Shown here in pieces: positions 48,556 to 62,066 of a stretch of DNA of 64,000 nucleotides. The notes beneath the pieces were generated by a model, which was given only the letters and a program-made list of their open reading frames with translations, searched no databases and was not told the origin of the DNA. The stretch lies in NCBI GenBank assembly GCA_002299555.1, contig DBOL01000025.1, forward strand, positions 817-64,816, in the 5' to 3' direction. Each line of letters starts with the position of its first letter. Positions within the stretch are counted from its first letter, which is position 1. The position numbers and the translations under genes were made by a program. This DNA is from Candidatus Aminicenantes bacterium UBA647. Its GTDB lineage: Bacteria > Acidobacteriota > Aminicenantia > UBA2199.

Positions 48556-50706
48556 CTACCTCCATGTATAAGGAGATAAGTTACCGCCAAGATCTCCTAT
48601 AGAATCAACCAGTAACTGAGCAACATATCTGGCATTATGAATATATCCGTGAGGTTCTTTCTTTGACAGCTGAAAGTTATAGGCAGCTTTCAAAAGGTTC
48701 GCAGAAAATCTGTATCCATTTGAATATGATGCCTCTCCACTATCCACAATACCGTTATTGTTAAGATCTTTGAAGAAATACGGATAGGTATGAGAGTCAT
48801 AAACTAGTGGTGCTTTCGACTGACTTCCAACTCTTTGCATTTGCGCATACAGGCTGTCTTCAAGTCCTATGATCTCGTATTTCATTGCTTCAGTTGTATT
48901 CCCGTCTCCATCATAATCGGGAATATTTGCAGGCCTTATTCCACTGAACTTGAACTTGGACGGATCTGCACCCGGATTCGGCTGGGCAATATCCTGTCCG
49001 TGACAATCGACACAATCAGCCTGGTTGGGTTTCTGAACATTATGACCTGTATTAGGTGATTTACCTTTTGTACCCATATGACACTCGATACAAGTTACAA
49101 ATTTGTTGTCATGGTTCGGGTACATCTGGCGTCCTGCATATACTTTCCCCGGATATTCATACCCACCCTGAACCTCGGTACCGAATAGTACAGCAGCTGT
49201 CGGGAAATAGTGGATATTTGTAAATGAATAATTTCCGGTTCCACCGGCTATCTTGCTGTCAACCGAAGCTTTTGAAGCGCGTCCCTGGTGACAGGCCATA
49301 CATAAGTTACTTGCGTCTCCCAAACTGACAACATCCCCTGATGGGAATTTCACGTCTGCCAGCTGCAGCAATGCGGGAGGGCCGGTATGACATGTAGTGC
49401 AAAGCATACCATTGGCGATCGGTTCAGGATCTTCATTGGTTCCGTCAGCAACATATTTAGCAAGTCCTGTCGCGCTATGACATCTTGCACAACTTGATTG
49501 AACTTCACCGTCTCCATCCCAATGTCTCCAGGCTTCCTGTGAACCGGCAAAATGACCTTCATCATTTCTGGTCATTTTTGACATATCAACTCCTCCAGTC
49601 ACAGAATTCATGTCAGCAATAGAATCATACATAAGTTGGATAAGGTATTTGCCTCCGTGAGCAAAAGCCCCCGGATCTTTTTGAGAAGTCTGGTAGTTAT
49701 ACGCAGCTTTTGCCAATCTTGGTGTAAATTTCTTATAACTATTTGCATACACAGCTTCACCCTCATCAATAACACCATCATTATTTGTATCAGTGAAAAA
49801 ATATGGATATGTATGTGATTCATAACCGATAGTTGTTCCAACTACATTTCTGGAGTATACCAGCATCCCGTTAAAGAGGGCATCCTGAAGGCCCTTCAGT
49901 TCATAATAGATCCCTTCAGTTGTATTCCCGTCACCGTCATAATCGGTAAAAGAACCGAAATACCTGATGTTGTGGAGATCCTCTTTACTCTCAATCCCGC
50001 TATGGCATGTATCACATTGTTCAATTTTGATCTCCAATGAATGGGGATCGTGACAATCAGTACAAGAGTTGTATCCGGTTACATGACCGAATTTCCCGTC
50101 ATATGTCTGCCCTGCATATTCATAACCGCCTTTGGCAAGAGTACCGTAAAGGATAGCTCCAGCCGGGAAATAATGGATATTTGAGAACCTGATAGATGAA
50201 GAGGGTGTATCCAATGCTTTGCCGGCAAGTCCTGCCATGACTGAAGGACCTGAAGATCTTCCCTGGTGACAATTCATGCAAATACCTTCATTTCCAAGAG
50301 GTTCATATGTTCCATCTTCATTCATCTCCCCTTTCACTTCGATACCTGAAGGAAATGTCACACCGGCAAAAACCTTCGGAGTCCCATTCTCAACATTAGT
50401 GTGACAGGTTTCGCAGGTAAAGGCTCCCGGTTCATGTCCATTCGCAACAGCACCGGTATTAGTAAATTCTTCGAATCCACCTGCACTGTGACATTTTGCA
50501 CAGCTGGATGGTACAACTGCCGGTTCATCCTCATCCCAATGGACAAATGCTTCCGACGTTGAATCATTATGGCCTGAATCGGCAAATAATGAATCCTGAA
50601 CAGTTTCGAACATAGCTTTATCCATATTACAGGACTGCAGAACAAACAATCCTGTTATAAAGACAAAACAGATTCCGATTATTGATAAATTTTTTCTTTT
50701 ATTCAT
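48556..50706 (-). CDS. Decaheme c-type cytochrome lipoprotein with internal 5+5 duplication (functional analogue of MtrC/OmcA-type surface cytochromes)
   Basis: Ten CXXCH motifs: CAKCH, CETCH, CMNCH, CTDCH, CDTCH, then CARCH, CTTCH, CMACH, CIECH, CVDCH. Lipobox-like LQSC after the signal peptide. GGAGG lies before ATG 50706; the ORF-track extension to 50805 would overlap the upstream gene. Confidence 0.85.
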   Translation of the reverse strand: MNKRKNLSIIGICFVFITGLFVLQSCNMDKAMFETVQDSLFADSGHNDSTSEAFVHWDEDEPAVVPSSCAKCHSAGGFEEFTNTGAVANGHEPGAFTCETCHTNVENGTPKVFAGVTFPSGIEVKGEMNEDGTYEPLGNEGICMNCHQGRSSGPSVMAGLAGKALDTPSSSIRFSNIHYFPAGAILYGTLAKGGYEYAGQTYDGKFGHVTGYNSCTDCHDPHSLEIKIEQCDTCHSGIESKEDLHNIRYFGSFTDYDGDGNTTEGIYYELKGLQDALFNGMLVYSRNVVGTTIGYESHTYPYFFTDTNNDGVIDEGEAVYANSYKKFTPRLAKAAYNYQTSQKDPGAFAHGGKYLIQLMYDSIADMNSVTGGVDMSKMTRNDEGHFAGSQEAWRHWDGDGEVQSSCARCHSATGLAKYVADGTNEDPEPIANGMLCTTCHTGPPALLQLADVKFPSGDVVSLGDASNLCMACHQGRASKASVDSKIAGGTGNYSFTNIHYFPTAAVLFGTEVQGGYEYPGKVYAGRQMYPNHDNKFVTCIECHMGTKGKSPNTGHNVQKPNQADCVDCHGQDIAQPNPGADPSKFKFSGIRPANIPDYDGDGNTTEAMKYEIIGLEDSLYAQMQRVGSQSKAPLVYDSHTYPYFFKDLNNNGIVDSGEASYSNGYRFSANLLKAAYNFQLSKKEPHGYIHNARYVAQLLVDSIGDLGGNLSPYTWR

Positions 50707-50719
50707 CGTTTTTCCTCCG

Positions 50720-52582
50720 TTATTTCCAACTGTAACCAAAGGAAATTTCAAATATATTGGCCTTGTAATCATTATAGCCAAAATCATTTTCCTTAAAATC
50801 AACATATCTGTAATTCAACTGACCGATAAAACCTTTTTCACAAAAATACTTGAAGAAGAGTTTAAAGTTAGTTCTTGTTAATTCCCATGATCCGTTGTTC
50901 TTGTAGTAGTTTAGATAAGCTCCGAGACCAGTCTTATCACTTAGTTTTGAGTAGACATAAAGGTCGAAAAGGTTTGAAGTCCCTTCGAAGAGTATATCCC
51001 AGACATAGGTCCCCTCGCCTCCGCTCCATGATGGCGGATAATAGATTGACCTGTCCCCTTTTCTGGTAACATCGATCAGAGAATATCCGGCTGAGAAATG
51101 AAGTTTTTTCTTGTAAATTCCAAGTCTGAGGTTCAGTTGATTCTTATCCGATGTCCACATCTCACCATTTTGATCACTTTCCGACTTATTGAACAAATAT
51201 GAACCACTGAAGTAAAGATTCTTGTTCTTGTATTTGGCAGTAAGCCTGAATCTGTGAAAATCAGTAGGTGAGATAAGAGTTAACGGATTATCATAAGTCC
51301 CATATTGATAATCTGCTGTTACTCTGAATTTTTTATTAAGCCTCAAGTTCAAATTTCCGAATATTCCGGTTTTGGATGTGGGTTCATTTACATCTTCGAT
51401 AACAATTGCATCTTCCACATCTCTCTGCTCCATTCTGTATCCGATAGTGAATCCGAATTTAGTGTTTGGTTGATACTGAAGCCCTGCTTCAACTCCTCCA
51501 GTTTCATATTTAAGATCCATTGAAGTTTTCTCCCCATCAATGGTCATAGATCCGGTCTGGTCAAAATTATTATAAAAAGTAGTTCCCACCAGAGCCATCT
51601 TATCATTCAGGAAGTAGGTAAAATCGAGATCATAGACCTGAGATTTTCTTGAGAAATCGCCATCTCCAGTATAGTCATATGAAAAACCTGCACCAACATA
51701 ATCGATACCCATTGCACTTTCATCATATGTGAACTCTGTATCCTGGTTCATGATCATAAAGCTGCCTTTCAGGAGAAGCCTTTTAATTGGATTAAATGTG
51801 AATTTTGCAGTGTGCGTAATGCCTTTCATATCATACGGCATATCAAGATGGAAATAATTAAGAGCTGTCGGATATCTGGCGAAATCACCACCGTCAGCAT
51901 ATCCGGGCAGGAACATGCTTGTTGCATTCTCAAAATCAGTAAATTTTTCTTCGATCACAAATGCAAAGCTCTTTCCGCTATAATCAAACCCGAGAGTTAC
52001 TTCAGTTGACATCTCATCTATTGGTTTTTCAAACTCAAACTCAACTCTTCCGATATCAAGTGTATTAACGCTCGATCCTTTCTTTGTGTAGCTGTTAAAA
52101 TCTATATATGCATGAGCACTTTTTCCCAGCCATACTTTGAAAAGGCCTGAATCGTTTATCCGGTCAAATGCATAAGTGTGAAAATCATGTCCTTCAAGAT
52201 GGTCATTATAAAAATATTCTGATTTTCTTCTGTTAAACTTAAACTTGTACTTCCCGTTTTTCACAATATCGAGACCCATACTTTCAAATGGGTCGCCGCC
52301 AAAATTGTGAATATAGACATTCATGTAATCAAAATATTTGTTCATTTTCCCGGCGGGGGCGAAATGAATATTGAAATCGAACAATCTGACCCCATCACCA
52401 AGGTTAATATCCTCTTTGTATTTTGATTCAACTCCGCTTACATCAACATACCTGTACCCTACCAGGAATTTTCCGTAAAACTCATCCTCACCTTGTTCTC
52501 CGGCAGAAAGGGATATTGATGACACAAATCCACAGAACAGGATAACCATTAAAATTGTTAAAAATGATTTATTTATTTTCAT
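50720..52582 (-). CDS. Large outer-membrane beta-barrel, MtrB/PioB-like position in a porin-cytochrome module
   Basis: Signal peptide and 620 aa of alternating aromatic/Gly/Asn/Asp-rich strand-like sequence with no Cys-rich or catalytic motif. It sits between two decaheme genes with 10 and 13 nt gaps. Confidence 0.6.
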   Translation of the reverse strand: MKINKSFLTILMVILFCGFVSSISLSAGEQGEDEFYGKFLVGYRYVDVSGVESKYKEDINLGDGVRLFDFNIHFAPAGKMNKYFDYMNVYIHNFGGDPFESMGLDIVKNGKYKFKFNRRKSEYFYNDHLEGHDFHTYAFDRINDSGLFKVWLGKSAHAYIDFNSYTKKGSSVNTLDIGRVEFEFEKPIDEMSTEVTLGFDYSGKSFAFVIEEKFTDFENATSMFLPGYADGGDFARYPTALNYFHLDMPYDMKGITHTAKFTFNPIKRLLLKGSFMIMNQDTEFTYDESAMGIDYVGAGFSYDYTGDGDFSRKSQVYDLDFTYFLNDKMALVGTTFYNNFDQTGSMTIDGEKTSMDLKYETGGVEAGLQYQPNTKFGFTIGYRMEQRDVEDAIVIEDVNEPTSKTGIFGNLNLRLNKKFRVTADYQYGTYDNPLTLISPTDFHRFRLTAKYKNKNLYFSGSYLFNKSESDQNGEMWTSDKNQLNLRLGIYKKKLHFSAGYSLIDVTRKGDRSIYYPPSWSGGEGTYVWDILFEGTSNLFDLYVYSKLSDKTGLGAYLNYYKNNGSWELTRTNFKLFFKYFCEKGFIGQLNYRYVDFKENDFGYNDYKANIFEISFGYSWK

Positions 52583-52592
52583 GATTCTGCTC

Positions 52593-53402
52593 CTATTTCA
52601 AAAATAATTTATCCAGGTTGGAACCATGGATGGATGAATGGCAATTAGCACAATTTGTATCATTAGCAAGGAATCTCAAATGCCAGTCCGGTGCAACTGA
52701 ATGACAGCTGAAGCATAATTCCCTTACACTCTGATGTTTAAGCATATGCCTGTTCGGTGACCCGTGGACATCATGACAAGCTGTACAGCCTTCAACGCTG
52801 GATGCTTCATGTTCATGCATGAAAGGGCCGCCTTTATCACGGTGACATTTCAAACATGATTCCTGCTTAAAACCACCGAGTCTCTGACGTGCCGCACTCT
52901 CATGAGGATTATGGCATGAAGTACACTCAAGGATCCCTTCTGCAAGGCGGTGTTTTTCATTCAGCATGAATTCCGTGGCAACATCCTGATGACAGGATGT
53001 ACAAAGTTTTGTGTTAAGTTTTGCCATTGAATTCACTTTTTTATGAACTCCATGACACTTGGTACAATCTATACCTGCTTTTGAATGTTCACCATTCATA
53101 AAACCTCCAACAACCGTTTTATGACAGGACAAACATTGTTTGGATTTCTGAAGTGCAGTCTCATTTTTGAATGAGAATATATTCCCGGACTCAGCATTAT
53201 CCAGATGCTTTGCAGCATTTCCATGACAGTCGATACATTTTGCGCTGGAAATACCATGAGCTGTTCCGATAAACTTCACGGAAACTTCATCATGGCACTC
53301 AGCACAAACATTTCCGGCACCCTCTTCTCCGAAAATATCAACCGAAAGGAACACTGTCAGACAGAACGTCATTAACAATACTCCGAAGATTCGTTTATTC
53401 AA
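52593..53402 (-). CDS. Periplasmic decaheme c-type cytochrome (MtrA/DmsE-like size and heme density)
   Basis: Ten CXXCH motifs in 269 aa: CAECH, CIDCH, CLSCH, CTKCH, CTSCH, CTSCH, CLKCH, CTACH, CFSCH and CANCH. It has a signal peptide but no lipobox. The start is TTG, with AGGAGG 8 nt upstream. Confidence 0.85.
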   Translation of the reverse strand: MNKRIFGVLLMTFCLTVFLSVDIFGEEGAGNVCAECHDEVSVKFIGTAHGISSAKCIDCHGNAAKHLDNAESGNIFSFKNETALQKSKQCLSCHKTVVGGFMNGEHSKAGIDCTKCHGVHKKVNSMAKLNTKLCTSCHQDVATEFMLNEKHRLAEGILECTSCHNPHESAARQRLGGFKQESCLKCHRDKGGPFMHEHEASSVEGCTACHDVHGSPNRHMLKHQSVRELCFSCHSVAPDWHLRFLANDTNCANCHSSIHGSNLDKLFLK

Positions 53403-53616: not shown

Positions 53617-54561
53617 TTACTTATTTCTCCGATAGGTCCTTAATAACACTCTGTAACTTCGTTTAAATATTTTATTGCTCAGCTCTATTTTCCCATTACT
53701 TTCAAGGATCTCCGCAGCTTTGTAAATTGCAGGGAAGAAAGATGGTTCTATAAGAGAAAATCTTGAAAGGTTTTTAATGTTTTCCGGTGAAGGATCAGTT
53801 ATTGATCTTCCTAAATAGAGACCTAATTTCAATCTTTTTGAATCCTTTGCTTTTAAAGCCTCTGTAAAAAAAAATTCTGACTCCATTATTTTATCCTGCA
53901 TAATGAGAGCATATCCATAACCGAGTCCGGCTTCCTCATTTTCACTATCCTTTTCTACAGCTTTTTTGTATATATTCTCTGCAAGTTGATAATTTCCGTC
54001 TATTATCAGAGTAAAAGCCTGCTTTGTTATCCGGTTGAGTTTCCTTTGCTCAAGTTTTTTATCAAACTCTTTGTATACATCACCCGGAGCCTCTCCTTTT
54101 CCAAGAGCCAGTAAATGATTTTTAAAGAATAGACTCAAATTTGATCTGTAACTGACGATCAATGAGTTCAGAATTCCTGCCTCGTTAATAAAGAGCACCG
54201 TGGGCATAACTATGATCCCGAGATTACCATAAATTTTTCTTTCAGGATCATTGAGATTTTTCTTCTCTCCTTTAATTTTGTTAAAAAGGATCATCACCCT
54301 TTTGTCAGTTTCATTATTAACATCAACAAGGAGAAAATAAAGATTTTTTCTTGAATTATATACTTTGCTGAATTGTCTGAAGAATGCAATGGATCTGGGC
54401 TCATCCGATTTCAAATACAGCAAAACCGACTTCTCTTTTCCCTCGAGAAACTTCAACTCATTGACCAGAGGGATATTATCGCCGGTCTTTATCTCCCGCA
54501 AGCCTTCAACATCTGCAGGAAACATATAAAAAGTTAAAAGCAGTAAAACTATTGCTTTCAT
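53617..54561 (-). CDS. Secreted protein with a Cys-less thioredoxin-like N-domain and TPR-like C-domain (function unknown)
   Basis: Signal peptide. A TlpA/redoxin-like strand-helix pattern (SVLLYLKSDEPRS..FF......LYFLLVDVN....MPTVLFI) lacks the CXXC. The C-terminus is a helical repeat region. An ATGA overlap links it to the upstream cytochrome gene. Confidence 0.4.
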   Translation of the reverse strand: MKAIVLLLLTFYMFPADVEGLREIKTGDNIPLVNELKFLEGKEKSVLLYLKSDEPRSIAFFRQFSKVYNSRKNLYFLLVDVNNETDKRVMILFNKIKGEKKNLNDPERKIYGNLGIIVMPTVLFINEAGILNSLIVSYRSNLSLFFKNHLLALGKGEAPGDVYKEFDKKLEQRKLNRITKQAFTLIIDGNYQLAENIYKKAVEKDSENEEAGLGYGYALIMQDKIMESEFFFTEALKAKDSKRLKLGLYLGRSITDPSPENIKNLSRFSLIEPSFFPAIYKAAEILESNGKIELSNKIFKRSYRVLLRTYRRNK

Positions 54562-55844
54562 AACCCCTTAACCTTTTTATTTCTGTCATATGAATATTCT
54601 TTGTGACATCCTGGTGCACAACTTCCACCGGTTTTTGTCTTTTCAAATCCAACCGGCAGGCTCCATTTCCCAAATGGTGTCTCTTTTCTAATGTGTTTGG
54701 GCAGATTACTGGCATGGATCTCATGACATGCCCGGCAAGTCCTCCCCTTTGTCATGTTCACATGAACATAATGGAGATTCCAGTCACCATCTCTAAAATT
54801 TGTAAGAGCTACGGTTCTTTCAACCTTTGCCAGTTTGCTCTCATGACATTCGAAGCAGGAAGCATATTTTTTCTCTTCATAAGCAGTATAGAATTCTTTC
54901 GGGAATTCATCCTTAAGGATCATATAAAAATCAGAACCATGAGGATCATGACACCCGGTACAATTACCATCCTTAATAGGACCGTGTTTGAATTTGTTTC
55001 TGTTCACGATCTTAAAAATATTGTAATCCTTACCATCCGTTCCAATTAATTTTTTGTCATGGCAATTAAGGCAAAGTTTAAGTGGAGAAATTTTGAGGTT
55101 ATTATCATAAAGAGAGCCGTGTGCATCATGGCAGTTGTAGCATTTCTTATTCTCATTTACTACAGCATGTTTGAACTTTACTGAATCAACTTTATCTGTT
55201 ATTTTTTTGTGACATTCACTACAGAGTTTTTCACGATCTGCAATTAATTGAAATTCATGGCCGGAGGAGTGAGGGCTGTGACATTTTGAACAACCCTCTT
55301 TCATAGGAGAGTGCATTTTCTGATCCGCACCTGAAAAATCCTTATCAGAATGACACCTTGTACATATTACTTTCATAGGCTCGACAAGGAGAAATTTATT
55401 ATTTGAACTGTGGGACTCATGACATAACGAGCAATTTCCCGAAGCGTTGGGTCCATGAACAAATTTTTTGTTCATCGGGTCTTCATCATGGCAGTCAAAG
55501 CATACCTTGTCGATCCTCTTATGCTTTAAAAAGGCTTTGTAATCTCCGCCATGCGAAAAATGACAATCTGTACAATCGCCTGAGGAGACAGCATCATGCA
55601 CATTTTTTTTGTCGGTCTGATCGTCATGACACTCATTACAATGTTCATTAATATTTGCGATCTTTGTAAATTTGTGATCGCCTGTCTTTTCATGACAGGT
55701 AAGGCAATCATCATCAACAGGTGCATGGATCACTTTGTAATCTTTCATATCCTTATGACACTCTGAAGTCACACAACTTTTTTCTGCACCGCCTGCAAAA
55801 GAAAAAAGAAATAAAACAGCTAATAATGCATAAAATAATTTCAT
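54558..55844 (-). CDS. Periplasmic multiheme c-type cytochrome, 13 CXXCH plus CX4CH and CX3CH variants (c7/c3-type repeat architecture)
   Basis: Canonical motifs: CLTCH, CNECH, CTDCH, CFDCH, CSLCH, CTRCH, CSKCH, CSECH, CYNCH, CLNCH, CTGCH, CFECH and CRACH. Variants: CVTSECH and CAPGCH. Signal peptide present, with GGAGG upstream. Confidence 0.85.
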   Translation of the reverse strand: MKLFYALLAVLFLFSFAGGAEKSCVTSECHKDMKDYKVIHAPVDDDCLTCHEKTGDHKFTKIANINEHCNECHDDQTDKKNVHDAVSSGDCTDCHFSHGGDYKAFLKHKRIDKVCFDCHDEDPMNKKFVHGPNASGNCSLCHESHSSNNKFLLVEPMKVICTRCHSDKDFSGADQKMHSPMKEGCSKCHSPHSSGHEFQLIADREKLCSECHKKITDKVDSVKFKHAVVNENKKCYNCHDAHGSLYDNNLKISPLKLCLNCHDKKLIGTDGKDYNIFKIVNRNKFKHGPIKDGNCTGCHDPHGSDFYMILKDEFPKEFYTAYEEKKYASCFECHESKLAKVERTVALTNFRDGDWNLHYVHVNMTKGRTCRACHEIHASNLPKHIRKETPFGKWSLPVGFEKTKTGGSCAPGCHKEYSYDRNKKVKGL

Positions 55845-55855
55845 CCTAATACCTC

Positions 55856-57538
55856 CTATTTTTCATAATCTTCCGGAGAATGATCTTCTCCATGACATTG
55901 CAGATAGCAATATCCTTTATTTCCTACGACTTCAAATTTTAACTCACCATCTAAATTCGGAAAAACAACACTCGTATCAAAATTAATTAATCCGATATTT
56001 TGCCTTGACCCATGAGGATCATGACATACTGAACATGGGGTGCTCTCTTCATTAATATGTTTCTTGTGATATTTAAAGGTTGTCAGATTTTCACTCATTA
56101 TGATCTCCGGCCTGTGACACTTCCAGCAAAGATCATAATTTGATTGTTGATAAGGCATCCCGGATGCAATCAAATACCTTCTTTCCAATAAGTTCTCATG
56201 AATTGAACCATGAGGCCCTTCAGGGCCACTACCACCTGCTTTCATTGAATTATTATTGTTATGACAATCGGTACAATTCATTATCGACGCAACATTCCAT
56301 GCAGGTCGCAAAGAGGGGACACCTGAAATTCCTCCTTTTTGTACAACACTATGAAAACTCTTATTGGAGGGGAGAAAGGCTTCCCTCATATTAGAATTCT
56401 GATATTGTCTGCTGACATCAAAACTATTGTATTTATCCTGCCCGTGACATTTCAAGCAAACCTCAAATTCAAATTGTGATTCTTCAATAATTGATCCGGT
56501 AATATTCATCCCTGATACGCCCGCCAACCGCCCATTAACCTGAGGGGCAACTGATTTTAATGAATTTACTCTGTGAGGATTATGGCAGTCAACACACTGA
56601 ACGTGAATATTGTTTAATAATATATTCTCTTTTGCATCGTGAATATTGCTGTATAAAGCAGAATCAACTGAATGAGATACATTTTTTCTCAACTCAGATC
56701 TAATATCAATACCGGTATTACCATTGTGACAAGCTAAACACGATTCCGAATCAGGGCCCTTTAGTAATAAATGGTGACTCCCCTCTGCATTATGACTTTG
56801 ATGACAATTCATACAGGAATTCTCAGTTACAGACTTATTGTTCGTATGAAACCACGGGTTCTTTCCAACTCCACTCCACGTCTTAGCCGAAATATCGTGA
56901 GTGGAAAGTCCATTATATCCTATAGGATCATGACATGATTTACACAAGGCTCCACCTGAAATATCTTTAACCAGAAATTTCGGGAAATTATCATGGTGAG
57001 GATCGTGACAGGTTGTACATTGGATCTTCCCATTCTTATCATATCCCACTTTATCATCAAGAGAAGGGTGCTTATACTCCGGAGAGGATGAAACAACGTT
57101 ATTACTACTAAAAGATATGGGATGATCATCTGAGATATTTTCTCCCAGGTTAGCAGAATGACCCCTTGGGAATCTTCCTGCATCTGTATTAGTTACAGAC
57201 ATATTTTCTGATCGGTTCAGCACTCTCCCCAATGCTATTGTCCCATCGTGACATGAAAGGCAAAGTTTCGAAGCTCCGTCAGGTTGTCCCAGAACAGAGT
57301 ACAATGTGGAGCTGCTGTAAAGTGTGTATTGAACCGAAGAACTTTCACGATTCCACAGAGGGAAATTCTTACCTTTTGTGTGAGAAGTGTGGCAAAAAAT
57401 ACAAATTTGACTGTCACTTGTGGCTTTGATATTGCCAGCACTGGAACTTGACAAATTGTGCTTTGAATTCTTTATACTTCTCGATGAAGCAAAAAATCCT
57501 AAAATAAAAATTAATGAAAAAATCGCAAGTCTCTTCAT
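55856..57538 (-). CDS. Multiheme c-type cytochrome, 11 CXXCH plus one CX3CH (doubled-CXXCH / Geobacter-type family)
   Basis: Canonical motifs: CIFCH, CLSCH, CTTCH, CKSCH, CMNCH, CLACH, CVDCH, CLKCH, CTDCH, CWKCH and CSVCH. Variant: CYLQCH. The N-terminal SKHNLS....CIFCHTSH...PLWN pattern is present, with a signal peptide. Confidence 0.85.
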   Translation of the reverse strand: MKRLAIFSLIFILGFFASSRSIKNSKHNLSSSSAGNIKATSDSQICIFCHTSHTKGKNFPLWNRESSSVQYTLYSSSTLYSVLGQPDGASKLCLSCHDGTIALGRVLNRSENMSVTNTDAGRFPRGHSANLGENISDDHPISFSSNNVVSSSPEYKHPSLDDKVGYDKNGKIQCTTCHDPHHDNFPKFLVKDISGGALCKSCHDPIGYNGLSTHDISAKTWSGVGKNPWFHTNNKSVTENSCMNCHQSHNAEGSHHLLLKGPDSESCLACHNGNTGIDIRSELRKNVSHSVDSALYSNIHDAKENILLNNIHVQCVDCHNPHRVNSLKSVAPQVNGRLAGVSGMNITGSIIEESQFEFEVCLKCHGQDKYNSFDVSRQYQNSNMREAFLPSNKSFHSVVQKGGISGVPSLRPAWNVASIMNCTDCHNNNNSMKAGGSGPEGPHGSIHENLLERRYLIASGMPYQQSNYDLCWKCHRPEIIMSENLTTFKYHKKHINEESTPCSVCHDPHGSRQNIGLINFDTSVVFPNLDGELKFEVVGNKGYCYLQCHGEDHSPEDYEK

Positions 57539-58470
57539 TCCGTCTCCTGAATTACCTTGAAAATTTGTATCCTGCTGTTGTAAGTATCTAAAACAAAGAT
57601 TCTTCCCGCTTTATCTAATAGTATCCCGCTTGGCATCCAAAAATTTAAGTCTCCACTTCCGGGGCCACCAAAATAATGCAAAAACTGTCCGGAACTATCA
57701 AAAATCTGGATATTGTCAAACATTACATCAGTTACATATATCCTCTTTTCGGAATCAACAGCTATACCTTTAGGCTTCGAAAATTCGCCCCCACTTCGCC
57801 CGTTTCTACCAAATGTGGCGACAAACTCTCCACTATGATCAAATATCTGAACTCTGAAATTTAATGCATCAGTGATATATATGCTATCTGTATCAACAAC
57901 AATATGTGTAGGATAATTGAACTTCCCGATTTCACTTCCACGATCTCCAAAATGGAGAATCTCTTTACCTTCCAGATCATAAATTACAACCTGATGATTT
58001 TGTGTGTCAGTACAAAATAATTTTCCAAGATAAAAATATATCCCGGTTATCCTTCTGTTCTGGTCACTTATTAAAATTCTTTTATATTTCAGATCCTTTC
58101 CAAATTCAATGACAGACCTGTAATATGAGTCCGAAACATAAAATCCCCCTGAATTCCCCCTGGCACAACTTACAGGTGAAATAAAATTCTTCCCATTGAA
58201 AGTTGAAATGTTTTTTTTCCTGTCTCCTTTCTCATTGATGATAACGATACGACCATTTGACTGATCTGTGACACAATACAGCCCTTTATCTATTTCCACA
58301 ATTGAGACCGGTTTGATCAGGAGGTCAGGTTTTTTCCCGAATAAAACCTCTACAATATTTTTTTTCTTCTTACCTTTTAGATCAATTATTTTTTCAAGCT
58401 TAACGGTCTCACCGGAAGCAAAAGTGCTGATCAGTAAAATTGAAAGTATTAATGAAATTAGATTTTTCAA
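57535..58470 (-). CDS. NHL-repeat six-bladed beta-propeller protein (periplasmic)
   Basis: Signal peptide. Repeated ~45 aa units have F..P.GI..D..G.IYV.D..N.RIQ.F (for example YPTHIVVDTDSIYITDALNFRVQIFD and PKGIAVDSEKRIYVTDVMFDNIQIFD). The start is TTG, overlapping the upstream stop (TTGA). Confidence 0.8.
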   Translation of the reverse strand: MKNLISLILSILLISTFASGETVKLEKIIDLKGKKKKNIVEVLFGKKPDLLIKPVSIVEIDKGLYCVTDQSNGRIVIINEKGDRKKNISTFNGKNFISPVSCARGNSGGFYVSDSYYRSVIEFGKDLKYKRILISDQNRRITGIYFYLGKLFCTDTQNHQVVIYDLEGKEILHFGDRGSEIGKFNYPTHIVVDTDSIYITDALNFRVQIFDHSGEFVATFGRNGRSGGEFSKPKGIAVDSEKRIYVTDVMFDNIQIFDSSGQFLHYFGGPGSGDLNFWMPSGILLDKAGRIFVLDTYNSRIQIFKVIQETE

Positions 58471-60425
58471 AAAAGCCTCCTTATAATTATACTGAAATAT
58501 GTGTGCTTCTTATTCGCTAAATAGTAATCATTCAGGAAATGTTCAAAGAACAGATCGATCACCACTTTTCTGATCGTCCAATTGAATTTGATTATAAGGC
58601 TTTCTCTTTCTGCCAGATATACCGAGGTTTTATTACTTAAATATCTGTATATGGCATTGAACCTGACTCCGTGCCTTGGATTAAAAGTCAGATCTCCCAT
58701 ATACAATTTATAATCTCCTCTCAGATCACCATTATCATAATGTGTTATTTTTGAGATAAAGTTACCTGAAAATTTAAAATATTTCAAAAATCCAAATCCT
58801 GAATTGAGCCTGAAGTATCTTGAACGATATCCTGAAAAAGATGAACTATACCTGTCAATCATGTATTCACAATTGACCAGCCTTGCATCTACGCGAAATC
58901 CATAGTTTTCACTTTCAAAATCTTCGTACGGTTGAACAAGATATTCAGAACTAAGAAACATATCATTATCATACTTCCTGTAAAACAGATGGAAATATTT
59001 CAAAAAATATAAAGAAGCACTGATCTGAGTGTAATCATTCCTCAGCTTATGATCCGGGAAGGTCTGATAATGATAATAGATAGCCACCCTCTCTCCGGAC
59101 GACATTGCGCCTCCGGGGATCCTGAGGATATTAATAACATTGTCAACAATAGTAATTTCATAATCGATGTATTCAATGTATATTCTGGTCAGATCCACAT
59201 TGGTTATTCGGATACTGTCAACTTGAATTCCCGGAATTGATAATAAGATCGTATCTGAAAAAGTAAACTTCCTGAATTCACTTACTTCAGAGATATCACT
59301 TTTTGAAATAAAATCACGATTTTCAATGCTTTTCCCCAAATTAAAATTTATTGCTCCATTTTTGATCTTTTTTGTGTAATTAATCGTCAATTGACCTTTA
59401 TAAGACTTGATATCCTGGAAAGAAGAATTCTCAAGTCTTCCTGACAATGAAGCTGTTGTTGTGAGACTGTCAAAAAGTTTATGTCTTAACGAAGATACAA
59501 GTTCCCCTTTCTGATAGGAATTATTATTTGACAGATCATTTGAATATGAAAATAAATTAAGTGAGAACAGGCCCTTCCGGATGAAGTTACTGGTATTAAA
59601 TGTGAAACCTAAGGTTTCCAGTGAAAGATCTTCTGTCATTTTCCGGTATGACACATTTGATATAACAAAGTTCCTCTTACTATTCCCGTAAAAATAGGAA
59701 AAATCATTCCGGATATCAAATGATTGAAAATTCAGACCATAAACCTTTTCTGAAAAATCTTTCCAATTTGATCTGAGCGTTAACTTACCGTTCTTAATAC
59801 GTGCAAGATCGGAATAAAATTCTATATTTTTGCTTTCTTCATTTCTCTCTTCATAAGATATCGATTCCGATAAACTTTTACTTTTGTATGCTTTCAACCT
59901 GAAAGGTAATAATTTTGTCCCGTTGCTGATCGCGAATCCAATACTTTCATTCAACAGATATTTCCTCTCAAAATAGTTTCGGTCCGATGTACTGAAACCT
60001 TTCATTGCAAAAATATCAAAATGTATTTTCTTCTTCTTAAATAAATTCAGGACAATATTGTAAGTGTTGTTGACAGAATTGTTAATGTCAGAATCTGAAA
60101 ACAATGTCCTTTTTGCTCTATAACCTACCAGACTAAAATTTATATTAAATGTCAACAGATTGGGATGGTAAATGCTTCCACTGGAATTTATCTGAATTCC
60201 ACCTTCAAAATACTTTCGAAAAATATCACTGCTAACAAGACCGTCAAATGAATCAATATCGCTGGTTGACTCATATTTAAGGATAAATGCTCCCGAAAAA
60301 TCGGATAGTTTAAATAAAGAAATTTCCTGTGCTGACAAATAATTAAAAGGAATAAACAACAAATTCAATACAACAATAACTTTCAAAAGGGATTTATTCC
60401 GGATAGCCTTAAAAAATTTTCTCAT
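58467..60425 (-). CDS. Large outer-membrane beta-barrel candidate of the second cytochrome module
   Basis: Signal peptide (..NYLSAQE). 652 aa of Tyr/Phe/Asn/Ser-rich alternating sequence ending ..IIIRRLF, with a C-terminal Phe typical of OMPs. ATGA overlaps occur on both sides. Confidence 0.55.
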   Translation of the reverse strand: MRKFFKAIRNKSLLKVIVVLNLLFIPFNYLSAQEISLFKLSDFSGAFILKYESTSDIDSFDGLVSSDIFRKYFEGGIQINSSGSIYHPNLLTFNINFSLVGYRAKRTLFSDSDINNSVNNTYNIVLNLFKKKKIHFDIFAMKGFSTSDRNYFERKYLLNESIGFAISNGTKLLPFRLKAYKSKSLSESISYEERNEESKNIEFYSDLARIKNGKLTLRSNWKDFSEKVYGLNFQSFDIRNDFSYFYGNSKRNFVISNVSYRKMTEDLSLETLGFTFNTSNFIRKGLFSLNLFSYSNDLSNNNSYQKGELVSSLRHKLFDSLTTTASLSGRLENSSFQDIKSYKGQLTINYTKKIKNGAINFNLGKSIENRDFISKSDISEVSEFRKFTFSDTILLSIPGIQVDSIRITNVDLTRIYIEYIDYEITIVDNVINILRIPGGAMSSGERVAIYYHYQTFPDHKLRNDYTQISASLYFLKYFHLFYRKYDNDMFLSSEYLVQPYEDFESENYGFRVDARLVNCEYMIDRYSSSFSGYRSRYFRLNSGFGFLKYFKFSGNFISKITHYDNGDLRGDYKLYMGDLTFNPRHGVRFNAIYRYLSNKTSVYLAERESLIIKFNWTIRKVVIDLFFEHFLNDYYLANKKHTYFSIIIRRLF

Positions 60426-60973
60426 ATCTTTTTCAGGAAAAATTTGTTGTCAGAGATATGGGGATCATGACATTCAAGGCAATTATCTCCTTTACAGGGG
60501 AGTGACGCTCCTGTTATTGGAGTTCTGTGGCATAAAACACATAGTTTCTTCCCATCTGCCAGCAGGAGTTTTCTGTTCTCGGATTGATGAGGGTTATGAC
60601 ATGTATTACATGCCCTTACTGCAACCGGCCCATGAACATATGGCCCTTCGAATTTTTCCTCCTTATGACAGATAAAACAGAGCTCTTTTTTCCCTGCTCT
60701 CAGAAAATTTGAAACATCTCTGGTATGACATTTGGTACACTCTTTTGTTTTATAATCGGGATGAGTTGATATGAATCGAACCTTAACGACTTTACGCCGA
60801 TCCTGCCCGGCAATATTTTTATCCTCAGTTTTAATTACTTGCCCGACCTCTGGCCCGGGGACACCATCAAAAAAAACCGAAAGAACTTTTCTATGCTTTT
60901 GAACAACGCAGGAACTCAATAAAATGAGGTTGATTAAAAAAAATACTACTAAAACAGAATTATTTTTCTTCAT
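60422..60973 (-). CDS. Pentaheme c-type cytochrome lipoprotein
   Basis: Motifs CTKCH, CFICH, CNTCH, CVLCH and CLECH. The signal peptide has lipobox-like LLSSC when started at MKKNNS (60973); the ORF-track extension to 61012 is unlikely. Confidence 0.8.
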   Translation of the reverse strand: MKKNNSVLVVFFLINLILLSSCVVQKHRKVLSVFFDGVPGPEVGQVIKTEDKNIAGQDRRKVVKVRFISTHPDYKTKECTKCHTRDVSNFLRAGKKELCFICHKEEKFEGPYVHGPVAVRACNTCHNPHQSENRKLLLADGKKLCVLCHRTPITGASLPCKGDNCLECHDPHISDNKFFLKKI

Positions 60974-62066
60974 ATTCTCCAAATGCATATACATTAACTT
61001 TATTTTTCCCAAAATTAGAAGTTATATACAATAAATATTCGGCTTTAAAATCCGGAGAAATATATTTGGAAAACAAAGATAAATTTTCATAATCAATTGT
61101 AATCGCCGCCGGCATATAAAGGTTATACCTCTCCCTTCCGGGCCCAAGCATGTGAAGGAGTAATTTCTTTTCTTTATTAAATATCTGTACATTCTGAAAT
61201 GCAGAATCGATTACATATATCCGCCCCTGTTTGTCAATATCGATCCCCTTCGCTCTGACAAAATTTCCCGGGCGATCACCGATACGCCCCAGACTGTCAA
61301 TATATTTTCCATTGATATCAAAGATAGATACTCTGTTATTTGTTGAGTCAACAATAAAGATTTTGTTCTCAAAAATTTTTATACTTGTCGGATGATACAA
61401 TTGCCCTTCCATCCTCCCCTTTTCACCGATCCGCCTTAAAATTTCCCCTGTCCTGATATCCAACACAAGAATCTGATGGGCTTTTACATCACTGACAAAC
61501 AGTTCATCTCCTCTAATATCAATATCAGATGGAGAAAACTCCCTCTTTTCACCATATACTTTCAGCAGATCACCATCAATATTATAAGCAAGAACCTGCT
61601 TTCTTAACATGTCTGCAACATATATAATGTTATTTTCTTTATCAATTGTTATATTCACGGGCTTTAAAAGTCTGCCCTGACCTTTATATCCCAAAAATCC
61701 AAGTTTCCTTTTTACCAGATCCAGAGTAACAACAACGTTGCTTCTGGAATCACATACATATATAACTCCTCTGTATGAATCAACACCATGTGCCTTTTTT
61801 ATTACAAAATCTTTCTTTGTCTCAGAACCGGCAACAAATCTAAAGAATTTACTTTTCTTTTTCTCAATATCACTTGAAGTAGTGAAAGTTGTCAGATATT
61901 GATATCTGGGTTTTGCCGGCAAAGGCGGAAAAAAAACATATTTTTTTTTGTTATCAGGGGAAGTTTTCAGTGTATTATACTTTGAGCAGAAAGGGAATAG
62001 CGTCACCAATAACATAATCATTACAAGTGATAGTGTTTTCCCGATTCTCATGTCCAAGGGATGCAT
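60960..62066 (-). CDS. NHL-repeat beta-propeller lipoprotein
   Basis: Lipobox LFPFC. NHL units include AHGVDSYRGVIYVCDSRSN.VV, PVNITIDKENNIIYVADMLRKQVLAY, HPTSIKIFENKIFIVDSTNNRVSIFD and AKGIDIDKQGRIYVIDSAFQNVQIFN. AGGAG lies 6 nt before ATG 62066. Confidence 0.8.
   Translation of the reverse strand: MHPLDMRIGKTLSLVMIMLLVTLFPFCSKYNTLKTSPDNKKKYVFFPPLPAKPRYQYLTTFTTSSDIEKKKSKFFRFVAGSETKKDFVIKKAHGVDSYRGVIYVCDSRSNVVVTLDLVKRKLGFLGYKGQGRLLKPVNITIDKENNIIYVADMLRKQVLAYNIDGDLLKVYGEKREFSPSDIDIRGDELFVSDVKAHQILVLDIRTGEILRRIGEKGRMEGQLYHPTSIKIFENKIFIVDSTNNRVSIFDINGKYIDSLGRIGDRPGNFVRAKGIDIDKQGRIYVIDSAFQNVQIFNKEKKLLLHMLGPGRERYNLYMPAAITIDYENLSLFSKYISPDFKAEYLLYITSNFGKNKVNVYAFGEYEEK

Follow-up and report, generated by a model that had tools for sequence, protein, structure and literature searches.

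The outer-surface electron-transfer cytochromes that have been studied are MtrC/OmcA, the OmcS/E/Z filaments and OcwA/OmhA. In MtrC, beta-barrel domains alternate with pentahaem domains. Here we deal with a gene on a stretch of 64,000 nucleotides (nt) of Candidatus Aminicenantes bacterium UBA647 (contig DBOL01000025.1, positions 817 to 64,816; this whole stretch is called the window, and coordinates are counted from its first letter), which encodes a protein of 716 amino acids (aa) with ten haem-binding CxxCH motifs, hereafter the decahaem protein. We regard it as fairly likely that this protein is a tandem decahaem lipoprotein of the NrfA/OcwA type, which would form the outward end of an electron conduit and whose helical bundles would be clamped by Ca2+. 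A literature search found no description of its family.

Which of the described systems does the decahaem protein resemble, and in what respects? OcwA of Thermincola potens (6I5B) and OmhA of Carboxydothermus ferrireducens (6QVM) are cell-surface multihaem cytochromes of Gram-positive metal reducers, and OcwA is built of a globular haem domain and a C-terminal three-helix bundle that is reminiscent of NrfA, HAO and MccA (PMC6703420). The repeats of the decahaem protein are modelled in a like manner, with a globular haem core and then an NrfA-type C-terminal three-helix bundle, as in both OcwA and OmhA, and the role proposed for those two, that of a terminal extracellular electron-transfer protein (PMC6703420, PMC7829351), would be similar as well. 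On the other hand, they are only 16-18% identical to the decahaem protein, with no match at the sequence level. OcwA is a nonahaem homodimer, in which a c554-like tetrahaem part is combined with a pentahaem part and which has high-spin haems, while the decahaem protein has two pentahaem modules per chain and apparently only bis-His haems. Four Asp-rich DxDxDG loops of the decahaem protein have no counterpart mentioned for OcwA or OmhA in their papers (PMC6703420, PMC7829351), and, unlike OcwA and OmhA, the decahaem protein is encoded in Aminicenantes together with a barrel and an MtrA-like cytochrome.

With MtrC/OmcA/MtrF/UndA of the Shewanella MtrCAB system, the decahaem protein shares ten haems arranged as 5 + 5, a lipoprotein signal, genes for a periplasmic decahaem cytochrome and an outer-membrane barrel in the same locus and, presumably, the job itself. 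It differs from them in being modelled as an NrfA-type core plus a helical bundle, twice over, and in the gene order, which is A-B-C against C-A-B. The likeness to NrfA (1GU6, 2RF7, 1FS7, 1OAH) consists in five haems per unit and long C-terminal helices. NrfA is, however, a periplasmic enzyme, and the decahaem protein is without its CxxCK catalytic haem. To our knowledge, the calcium sites of NrfA are not DxDxDG loops.

A tandem duplication of a pentahaem module

The first-pass annotation of this gene, made from the DNA letters alone, had proposed an internal tandem duplication, and all 24 strings that it quoted are found in the protein, their order paired between the halves. A self-alignment confirms the proposal: residues 41-385 and 386-716 are 39% identical over 348 columns (E 4e-69, BLASTP), with five CxxCH motifs on either side, at residues 69, 98, 143, 215 and 231 and at residues 406, 436, 469, 539 and 565. 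CxxCK and Cx3-4CH motifs are absent from the 716-aa sequence. The gene and its repeats are located as follows.

48556..50706, minus strand: decahaem lipoprotein gene (P0001), 716 aa; open reading frame and translation, ten CxxCH, more than 3000 homologues
49567..50586, minus strand: repeat 1, aa 41-380, with five CxxCH and the invariant His46, 178, 208, 222 and 350; from self-alignment, segmentation with a repeat hidden Markov model (HMM) and His conservation
48559..49566, minus strand: repeat 2, aa 381-716, with five CxxCH and the invariant His385, 499, 532, 555 and 690; from self-alignment and repeat HMM segmentation

How old is the duplication? At the DNA level, similarity between the halves is confined to short patches, the best of them 36 nt long and lying over the first Asp-rich loop (loop A) of each half; with only such patches still similar, the duplication must be old. 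When 93 repeats, drawn from several phyla and from proteins with two or three repeats, were placed in a maximum-likelihood tree, the first repeats formed one clade (support 99 in the Shimodaira-Hasegawa-like approximate likelihood ratio test, SH-aLRT), separate from the second repeats and spanning Aminicenantes, Chloroflexota, Planctomycetota and Actinomycetota. Since all first repeats fall into this one clade, the two-repeat architecture, and with it the duplication, is older than the spread of the family. The patch over loop A (window positions 49914-49949 against 48888-48923, minus strand) is 92% identical, while the other short patches reach at most about 72%; codon-level constraint could account for it, or a small gene-conversion tract.

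Each repeat as an NrfA/OcwA-type unit

Structures were modelled with AlphaFold2 (AF2) for the full-length protein from a 107-sequence alignment (predicted local distance difference test, pLDDT, 89.8; predicted template modelling score, pTM, 0.86) and for repeat 2 alone from a 105-sequence alignment (pLDDT 94.4, pTM 0.93). Each repeat is modelled as a haem core poor in secondary structure and then three long helices, with a beta-hairpin inserted after helix 1 in both bundles and with His350 in repeat 1 and His690 in repeat 2 standing just before helix 3.

49597..49911, minus strand: three-helix bundle of repeat 1; helices 266-289, 329-343 and 352-370, hairpin 293-295 / 303-305, local pLDDT 85-98
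48592..48885, minus strand: three-helix bundle of repeat 2; helices 608-629, 669-683 and 692-705, hairpin 634-636 / 644-646

When the whole model was compared with the Protein Data Bank (PDB) by Foldseek, OcwA (6I5B) was the only significant match (E 1.2e-4, probability 1.0), and NrfA and octahaem nitrite reductases ranked below it. With a single repeat as query, OcwA again came first, at a template modelling (TM) score of 0.46-0.47 normalised to the repeat (its E ranging from 1.2e-4 to 4.4e-4 over both queries), and OmhA (6QVM) came next with a probability of 0.95; Escherichia coli NrfA gave a TM-score of 0.47-0.48, likewise normalised to the repeat, at a low probability (0.05-0.3). No MtrC, MtrF, OmcA or UndA structure was among the matches at E <= 10. 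When the PDB was searched by sequence, neither the protein nor a profile of 107 sequences found more than noise at the level of CxxCH, such as the zinc-ribbon protein uS14, so that the link to OcwA and NrfA is a structural one only. The models and the Foldseek matches assign each half to the NrfA/OcwA/OmhA fold, in which a pentahaem core is followed by the C-terminal three-helix bundle.

It had been suggested at first that the protein resembles MtrC/OmcA in its domain logic, with a pentahaem and a non-haem domain in each half, the non-haem domains being different ones. This suggestion did not survive the modelling and the Foldseek search, which give NrfA/OcwA units instead, and the OmcA/MtrC model TIGR03507 scores 24.6 bits, far below its cut-off of 209.3. 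As the bundle is integral to the NrfA/OcwA fold, the supposed non-haem domain is that bundle; it is no independent domain such as those of MtrC. PF22113 (domains II/IV) reaches 31.2 bits against a cut-off of 30, with no single stretch passing alone. Otherwise, the Pfam and NCBIfam scans returned generic haem-motif families only, and there is no dedicated family model.

What are the ligands of the ten haems? Each repeat has five CxxCH motifs, and the invariant His that lie elsewhere in it number exactly five as well; of these, His178 and His350 are 99% conserved in 195 divergent repeats (taken from representatives of 50%-identity clusters). By this count, all ten haems are probably bis-His electron-transfer haems, nothing points to a catalytic haem with open coordination, and the decahaem protein would therefore not be an enzyme. 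It is to be noted that His350 and His690 are located in the bundle, so the bundle probably supplies an axial haem ligand, which would in turn give a rationale for clamping the bundle with metal sites.

The fold does raise the question of enzymatic activity, for the sole structural relatives belong to the superfamily of NrfA, octahaem nitrite reductases and OcwA, and OcwA slowly reduces nitrite and hydroxylamine (PMC6703420). The decahaem protein might then be a periplasm-facing redox enzyme or carrier, diverged from NrfA or the octahaem reductases and acting on a soluble nitrogen or sulphur oxyanion; a lipoprotein signal alone does not specify the outer surface, and single-module homologues of Rhodobacterales stand beside an Nqr operon with no barrel. 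However, there is no CxxCK and no missing distal His, the five extra invariant His of each repeat equal its five haems, Cytochrom_C552 (PF02335) is not among the families listed for the protein at E <= 0.01, and in the Aminicenantes-type loci the gene strictly adjoins those of a barrel and an MtrA-like decahaem, as is characteristic of a trans-outer-membrane conduit. We consider such an enzyme or carrier distinctly unlikely.

The Asp-rich loops

Loops of the form Dx[DN]x[DNG]G occur four times in the protein, starting at residues 255, 306, 597 and 647, a number that was reached in 2 of 20,000 composition-preserving shuffles of its sequence.

49909..49944, minus strand: loop A1, DYDGDGNTTEGI, aa 255-266; DxDxDG, Glu at position 10 invariant, bundle helix 1 following immediately
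49756..49791, minus strand: loop B1, DTNNDGVIDEGE, aa 306-317; EF-hand-like 12-mer after strand 303-305
48883..48918, minus strand: loop A2, DYDGDGNTTEAM, aa 597-608; DxDxDG loop of repeat 2
48733..48768, minus strand: loop B2, DLNNNGIVDSGE, aa 647-658; DxDxDG loop of repeat 2

Are these loops EF-hands? The first-pass annotation had described all four as canonical, of the consensus D-x-[DN]-x-[DNG]-G-x-[ILVT]-x-x-x-E. The consensus does fit the loops at 306 (DTNNDGVIDEGE) and 647 (DLNNNGIVDSGE); it does not fit the A loops at 255 and 597, DYDGDGNTTEGI and DYDGDGNTTEAM, in which position 8 is Thr, position 10 is Glu and position 12 is Ile or Met. The term canonical has to be given up for all of them. 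The PROSITE pattern PS00018 matches none of the four, the B loops agreeing with it over positions 1-12 and failing because position 13 is Ala, and no EF-hand family appears at E <= 0.01 in the Pfam/NCBIfam scan of the protein. When the AF2 model was inspected by DSSP for a helix-loop-helix context, none of the four loops had one: loop A is coil and then helix 1, with no entering helix, and loop B comes after a beta-strand and before a helical turn of only three residues. EF-hand-like DxDxDG loops is thus the accurate name.

Such loops are not confined to EF-hands. Rigden and colleagues (PMC3123361) place Dx[DN]xDG calcium sites in EF-hand, dockerin and a dozen other structural contexts, and the decahaem protein carries the same kind of linear motif four times, conserved at the liganding positions. 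Loop B even has the full EF-hand spacing 1-3-5-(7)-9-12, while loop A, with its Glu at position 10, departs from that of EF-hand loops. Taken by their sequences, the loops are of the Dx[DN]xDG type and not EF-hands. With a 35-residue peptide around loop B as query, the nearest PDB sequences are the calcium loops of dockerin, SCaMC-1, hippocalcin and nucleobindin, with non-significant E values, and a loop A peptide shows no resemblance to calcium loops in the same comparison. Dockerin itself was considered and rejected, because some 50 residues separate loop A from loop B, unlike the paired 22-residue segments of a dockerin.

The first-pass annotation had made its proposal hinge on the conservation of the loops in homologues, and conserved they are, across two samples. 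In 411 close repeats from 201 proteins, loop A keeps D1 in 99.5%, D3 in 95%, D5 in 94%, G6 in 96% and E10 in 99%, and loop B keeps D1 in 99.5%, N3 in 95%, N/D5 in 99%, G6 in 98%, D9 in 90% and E12 in 97%, while the positions between the ligands (2, 4, 7, 8, 10, 11) vary freely. Among the 195 divergent repeats, the ligand positions are 61-91% conserved, with D1 at 91% and E10 at 83% in loop A and D1 at 82% and E12 at 69% in loop B. Loop B is deleted in about 12% of these, and since it can be missing, it is not indispensable to the fold. Exactly the pattern expected of metal ligands thus appears in the Asp-rich loops. A subfamily-specific variant of loop B has Cys at position 8 (DxxGDGAC...) in 41 of the 195 divergent repeats, such as P0187, P0195 and P0358.

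Do the loops bind a metal at all? They might be tight turns whose wealth of Asp, Asn and Gly is conserved for reasons of conformation only. This would agree with the failure of PS00018, the absence of a position-12 Glu from loop A and of any helix-loop-helix, the dissimilarity of loop A to calcium loops in the PDB peptide search and the lack of loop B in some distant members. But conservation falls exactly on positions 1, 3, 5, 6, 9 and 12 in loop B and 1, 3, 5, 6 and 10 in loop A, the very positions of the ligands in Dx[DN]xDG sites, which occur in many contexts other than EF-hands (PMC3123361), and a turn kept for its conformation would not need three acidic or amide side chains and a distal Glu. 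Loops without metal are, in our opinion, very improbable. Most likely, the four DxDxDG loops bind Ca2+ as structural clamps.

Calcium had been called unexpected in an extracellular cytochrome, which overstates the matter. NrfA enzymes, the relatives by fold, bind calcium (title of 1OAH), and the MtrCAB crystal structure contains an MtrB-bound calcium that is proposed to tune the haem distance between MtrA and MtrC (PMC12076491); with calcium already known from both, the surprise is smaller than it seemed.

The tuning role proposed for the MtrB calcium also opens the way to a more active function, in which the loops would be binding sites for a cationic acceptor or donor, for a mineral (Fe, Mn) or for a Ca2+ bridge to lipopolysaccharide, S-layer or exopolymer, or would serve calcium-dependent electron transfer. 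The four acidic loops are of an exposed type and are conserved even where the barrel is absent, and loop B is similar to the loops of dockerins and EF-hands, through which proteins bind one another in a calcium-dependent way. Yet the loops flank secondary structure of the bundle and are modelled as ordered with high confidence (local pLDDT 85-96), which is typical of structural sites, and a paired-loop dockerin architecture is not there. We hold such a binding function to be unlikely, and prefer to see the loops as structural Ca2+ clamps of the bundles.

Export, gene neighbourhood and distribution

The decahaem gene is the last of three adjacent genes on the minus strand. These and the translation and export signals of the decahaem gene are given below.

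50713..50718, minus strand: Shine-Dalgarno sequence GGAGGA, separated by 6 nt from the ATG at 50706 and coming right after the TAA of the barrel gene (50720-50722)
50629..50706, minus strand: signal peptide ending in the lipobox-like LQSC (Cys26); read from the sequence, with lipidation presumed
50720..52582, minus strand: gene of a 620-aa outer-membrane beta-barrel, immediately upstream; from the list of open reading frames and synteny
52593..53402, minus strand: gene of a 269-aa periplasmic decahaem cytochrome, MtrA/DmsE-like; ten CxxCH, conserved synteny

The mechanically called reading frame of the decahaem gene opens at 50805 and would give 749 aa. The ATG at 50706 is the preferred start, because GGAGGA is suitably spaced from it and the homologues begin aligning at this very Met of the 716-aa form. 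The protein is probably exported by Sec and anchored by a lipid; among 107 close homologues, 77 have a Cys within residues 15-45 and 40 fit a stricter lipobox pattern. From the arrangement of the genes, the MtrA-like cytochrome, the barrel and the decahaem protein, the third, appear to be encoded as a translationally coupled trio. The order MtrA-like cytochrome (about 269 aa), barrel (about 620 aa) and decahaem is kept in 33 of 39 Aminicenantes-type loci (L001-L039), a count that takes only loci that also keep the cytochrome, the other six being short contigs that end before the upstream region. The hosts of these loci are Aminicenantes, Deferrimicrobium, Desulfaltia and metagenome-assembled genomes (MAGs) labelled Clostridia or Eubacteriales. 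Further upstream on the same strand, the window holds at 53617-62066 more multihaem genes, of 428 aa (13+2 motifs) and 560 aa (11+1), and a gene of a tetratricopeptide repeat protein.

A different picture is seen in the loci L040-L080 of Chloroflexota, Pirellulales and Acidimicrobiia, where the decahaem protein, often with a LAAC-type lipobox, is encoded with neither the barrel nor the MtrA-like gene nearby. The neighbours in such barrel-less loci are NapC/NirT-type and other multihaem cytochromes, cytochrome b561 and an NrfC-like iron-sulphur protein. A frequent neighbour in the Chloroflexota loci is an eight-haem lipoprotein (L071:2617-3948 in an Anaerolineaceae MAG) whose N-terminal part contains a run of Gly-X-Y like that of collagen (Pfam Collagen, 29 bits), which may serve as a spacer stalk.

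The family as a whole is large. More than 3000 clusters at 90% identity were matched among 8000 candidates scored, and at 50% identity 1159 clusters match at E <= 1e-3, 578 at E <= 1e-10 and 234 at E <= 1e-30. Relatives are encoded in at least 531 species-level genomes and span Aminicenantes, Chloroflexota, Planctomycetota, Actinomycetota, Desulfobacterota-like lineages and Alphaproteobacteria, the closest being Candidatus Aminicenantes MAGs at 90-91% identity. Within the phylum, by contrast, the gene was found in 3 of 201 sampled genomes, all three copies having two repeats; it was not found in a genome of the same genus (96% completeness), and a search of its own genome gave no paralogue. 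This patchy distribution suggests an accessory module that has possibly moved horizontally. As for earlier reports, FeGenie names Aminicenantes in connection with homologues of cyc2 or sulfocyanin only. ARMA_0580 of Ardenticatena maritima, a surface cytochrome with seven haems (PMC5808234), was weighed as a possible characterised relative but could not be linked, and its haem number differs.

How would the decahaem protein work?

The lipoprotein signal and the gene order together point to a location on the cell surface. There, the decahaem protein would dock on the barrel from outside, with the MtrA-like cytochrome held inside the barrel, and the two NrfA-type pentahaem packs of the decahaem protein would relay electrons between this barrel-threaded cytochrome and extracellular acceptors or donors. 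Its role would thus be that of MtrC in Shewanella, played by an unrelated fold. Ca2+ in the DxDxDG loops would fix the bundle, and with it His350 and His690, against the haem core in the extracellular medium. In loci without an outer-membrane conduit, it would be a membrane-anchored cytochrome on the outer face in a quinol-linked chain. We infer here the direction of electron flow, the partners, the calcium occupancy and the bis-His ligation.

Several observations weigh against this scheme. The AF2 models contain no haems, and with OcwA and NrfA they reach TM-scores of no more than about 0.35-0.48. The lipobox is atypical, with Gln at -2, and the lipobox-like pattern is found in only those 40 of the 107 homologues. 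Of the distant repeats, about 12-30% have lost loop B or carry it in a degenerate form. No MtrB/PioB match is listed for the 620-aa barrel in Pfam at E <= 0.01, the sole family listed there being OMP_b-brl, which falls just short of its cut-off (27.8 against 28.7 bits), and the 269-aa cytochrome scores 169.3 bits with the DmsE-family model TIGR03508 (E 1e-49) against a cut-off of 192.2; both being below the family cut-offs, Mtr-like denotes here an analogy of organisation and not membership. The family occurs without the barrel, so docking on it cannot be the sole mode of action. Finally, family members are called hypothetical in every source.

One may go further and imagine that the tandem repeat mimics in one chain the homodimer of NrfA or OcwA, with a continuous path through ten haems, with Ca2+ loops that set the bundle His, and with the repeat as a portable redox module. 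We find this an improbable extension. If it were true, the two modules would pack through their three-helix bundles, and haem ligation, redox potential and electron flow would depend on extracellular calcium through the positioning of His350 and His690.

One-repeat, three-repeat and fused forms

If the decahaem protein arose by duplication, do forms with another number of repeats exist? Three-repeat proteins, with fifteen haems and about 1030-1200 aa, do. In most of them, repeats 2 and 3 are both placed with second-repeat lineages (in P0016 as a recent pair), and in P0017 the middle repeat groups next to the first-repeat clade; the extra copies arose more than once.

Single-copy versions had also been asked for by the first-pass annotation. 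A query with half of the protein brought up little other than pieces of multi-repeat proteins that were truncated at the N terminus and lay on short contigs, and genuine single-repeat proteins surfaced in a search of 50%-identity representatives and its follow-up. In these pentahaem versions, a signal peptide is followed by exactly five CxxCH motifs and by the C-terminal ...xRP ending of the family. Examples are P0351 (362 aa), of whose 104 relatives 59 have 340-390 aa and exactly five haems, and P0349 (424 aa), a lipoprotein. Cultured Rhodobacterales, namely Limimaricola hongkongensis, L. pyoseonensis, Tranquillimonas alkanivorans and Salipiger, also have such proteins, annotated as "polyheme membrane-associated cytochrome C". 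Loop B is present in all of seven single-repeat proteins examined and loop A in four. In L. hongkongensis (GCA_000365005.1, L083:6001-7089), the 362-aa single-module homologue has both DxDxDG loops, and its gene stands alone, divergent from the operon of the Na+-translocating NADH:quinone oxidoreductase (Nqr, Na+-NQR).

The pentahaem module is additionally found joined to other haem modules. Moreover, one copy of it is fused C-terminally to other domains in P0347 (789 aa), P0372 (693 aa), P0386 (632 aa) and P0375 (1203 aa). Judged by eye, the N-terminal parts are like a Ser/Thr protein kinase in P0347 and P0372, like cytochrome b in P0386 and a long sensor-like region in P0375; the kinase fusions could be extracytoplasmic redox-sensing kinases. 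Fusions of this kind fit the view that multihaem cytochromes evolve by "grafting and pruning" (PMC9250108).

Concluding remarks

Here, we have described a large and unstudied family of multihaem cytochromes, whose member in the uncultured Aminicenantes probably forms the outward end of a conduit that carries electrons across the outer membrane. By analogy, the decahaem protein would function like MtrC and yet stand outside that family, as kin of OcwA, OmhA and NrfA at the level of the fold that is without their catalytic features. The family is a clean example of multihaem cytochrome evolution by module duplication, and its conserved loops of calcium type can be put to a direct biochemical test; since single-module homologues occur in cultured Rhodobacterales, such experiments are practical. 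What would it mean for the organisms? A module of the Gram-positive type, like that of OcwA, would be joined in this system to a barrel conduit of the Gram-negative type, and the trio of genes would extend extracellular electron transfer to phyla that are usually described as fermenters.

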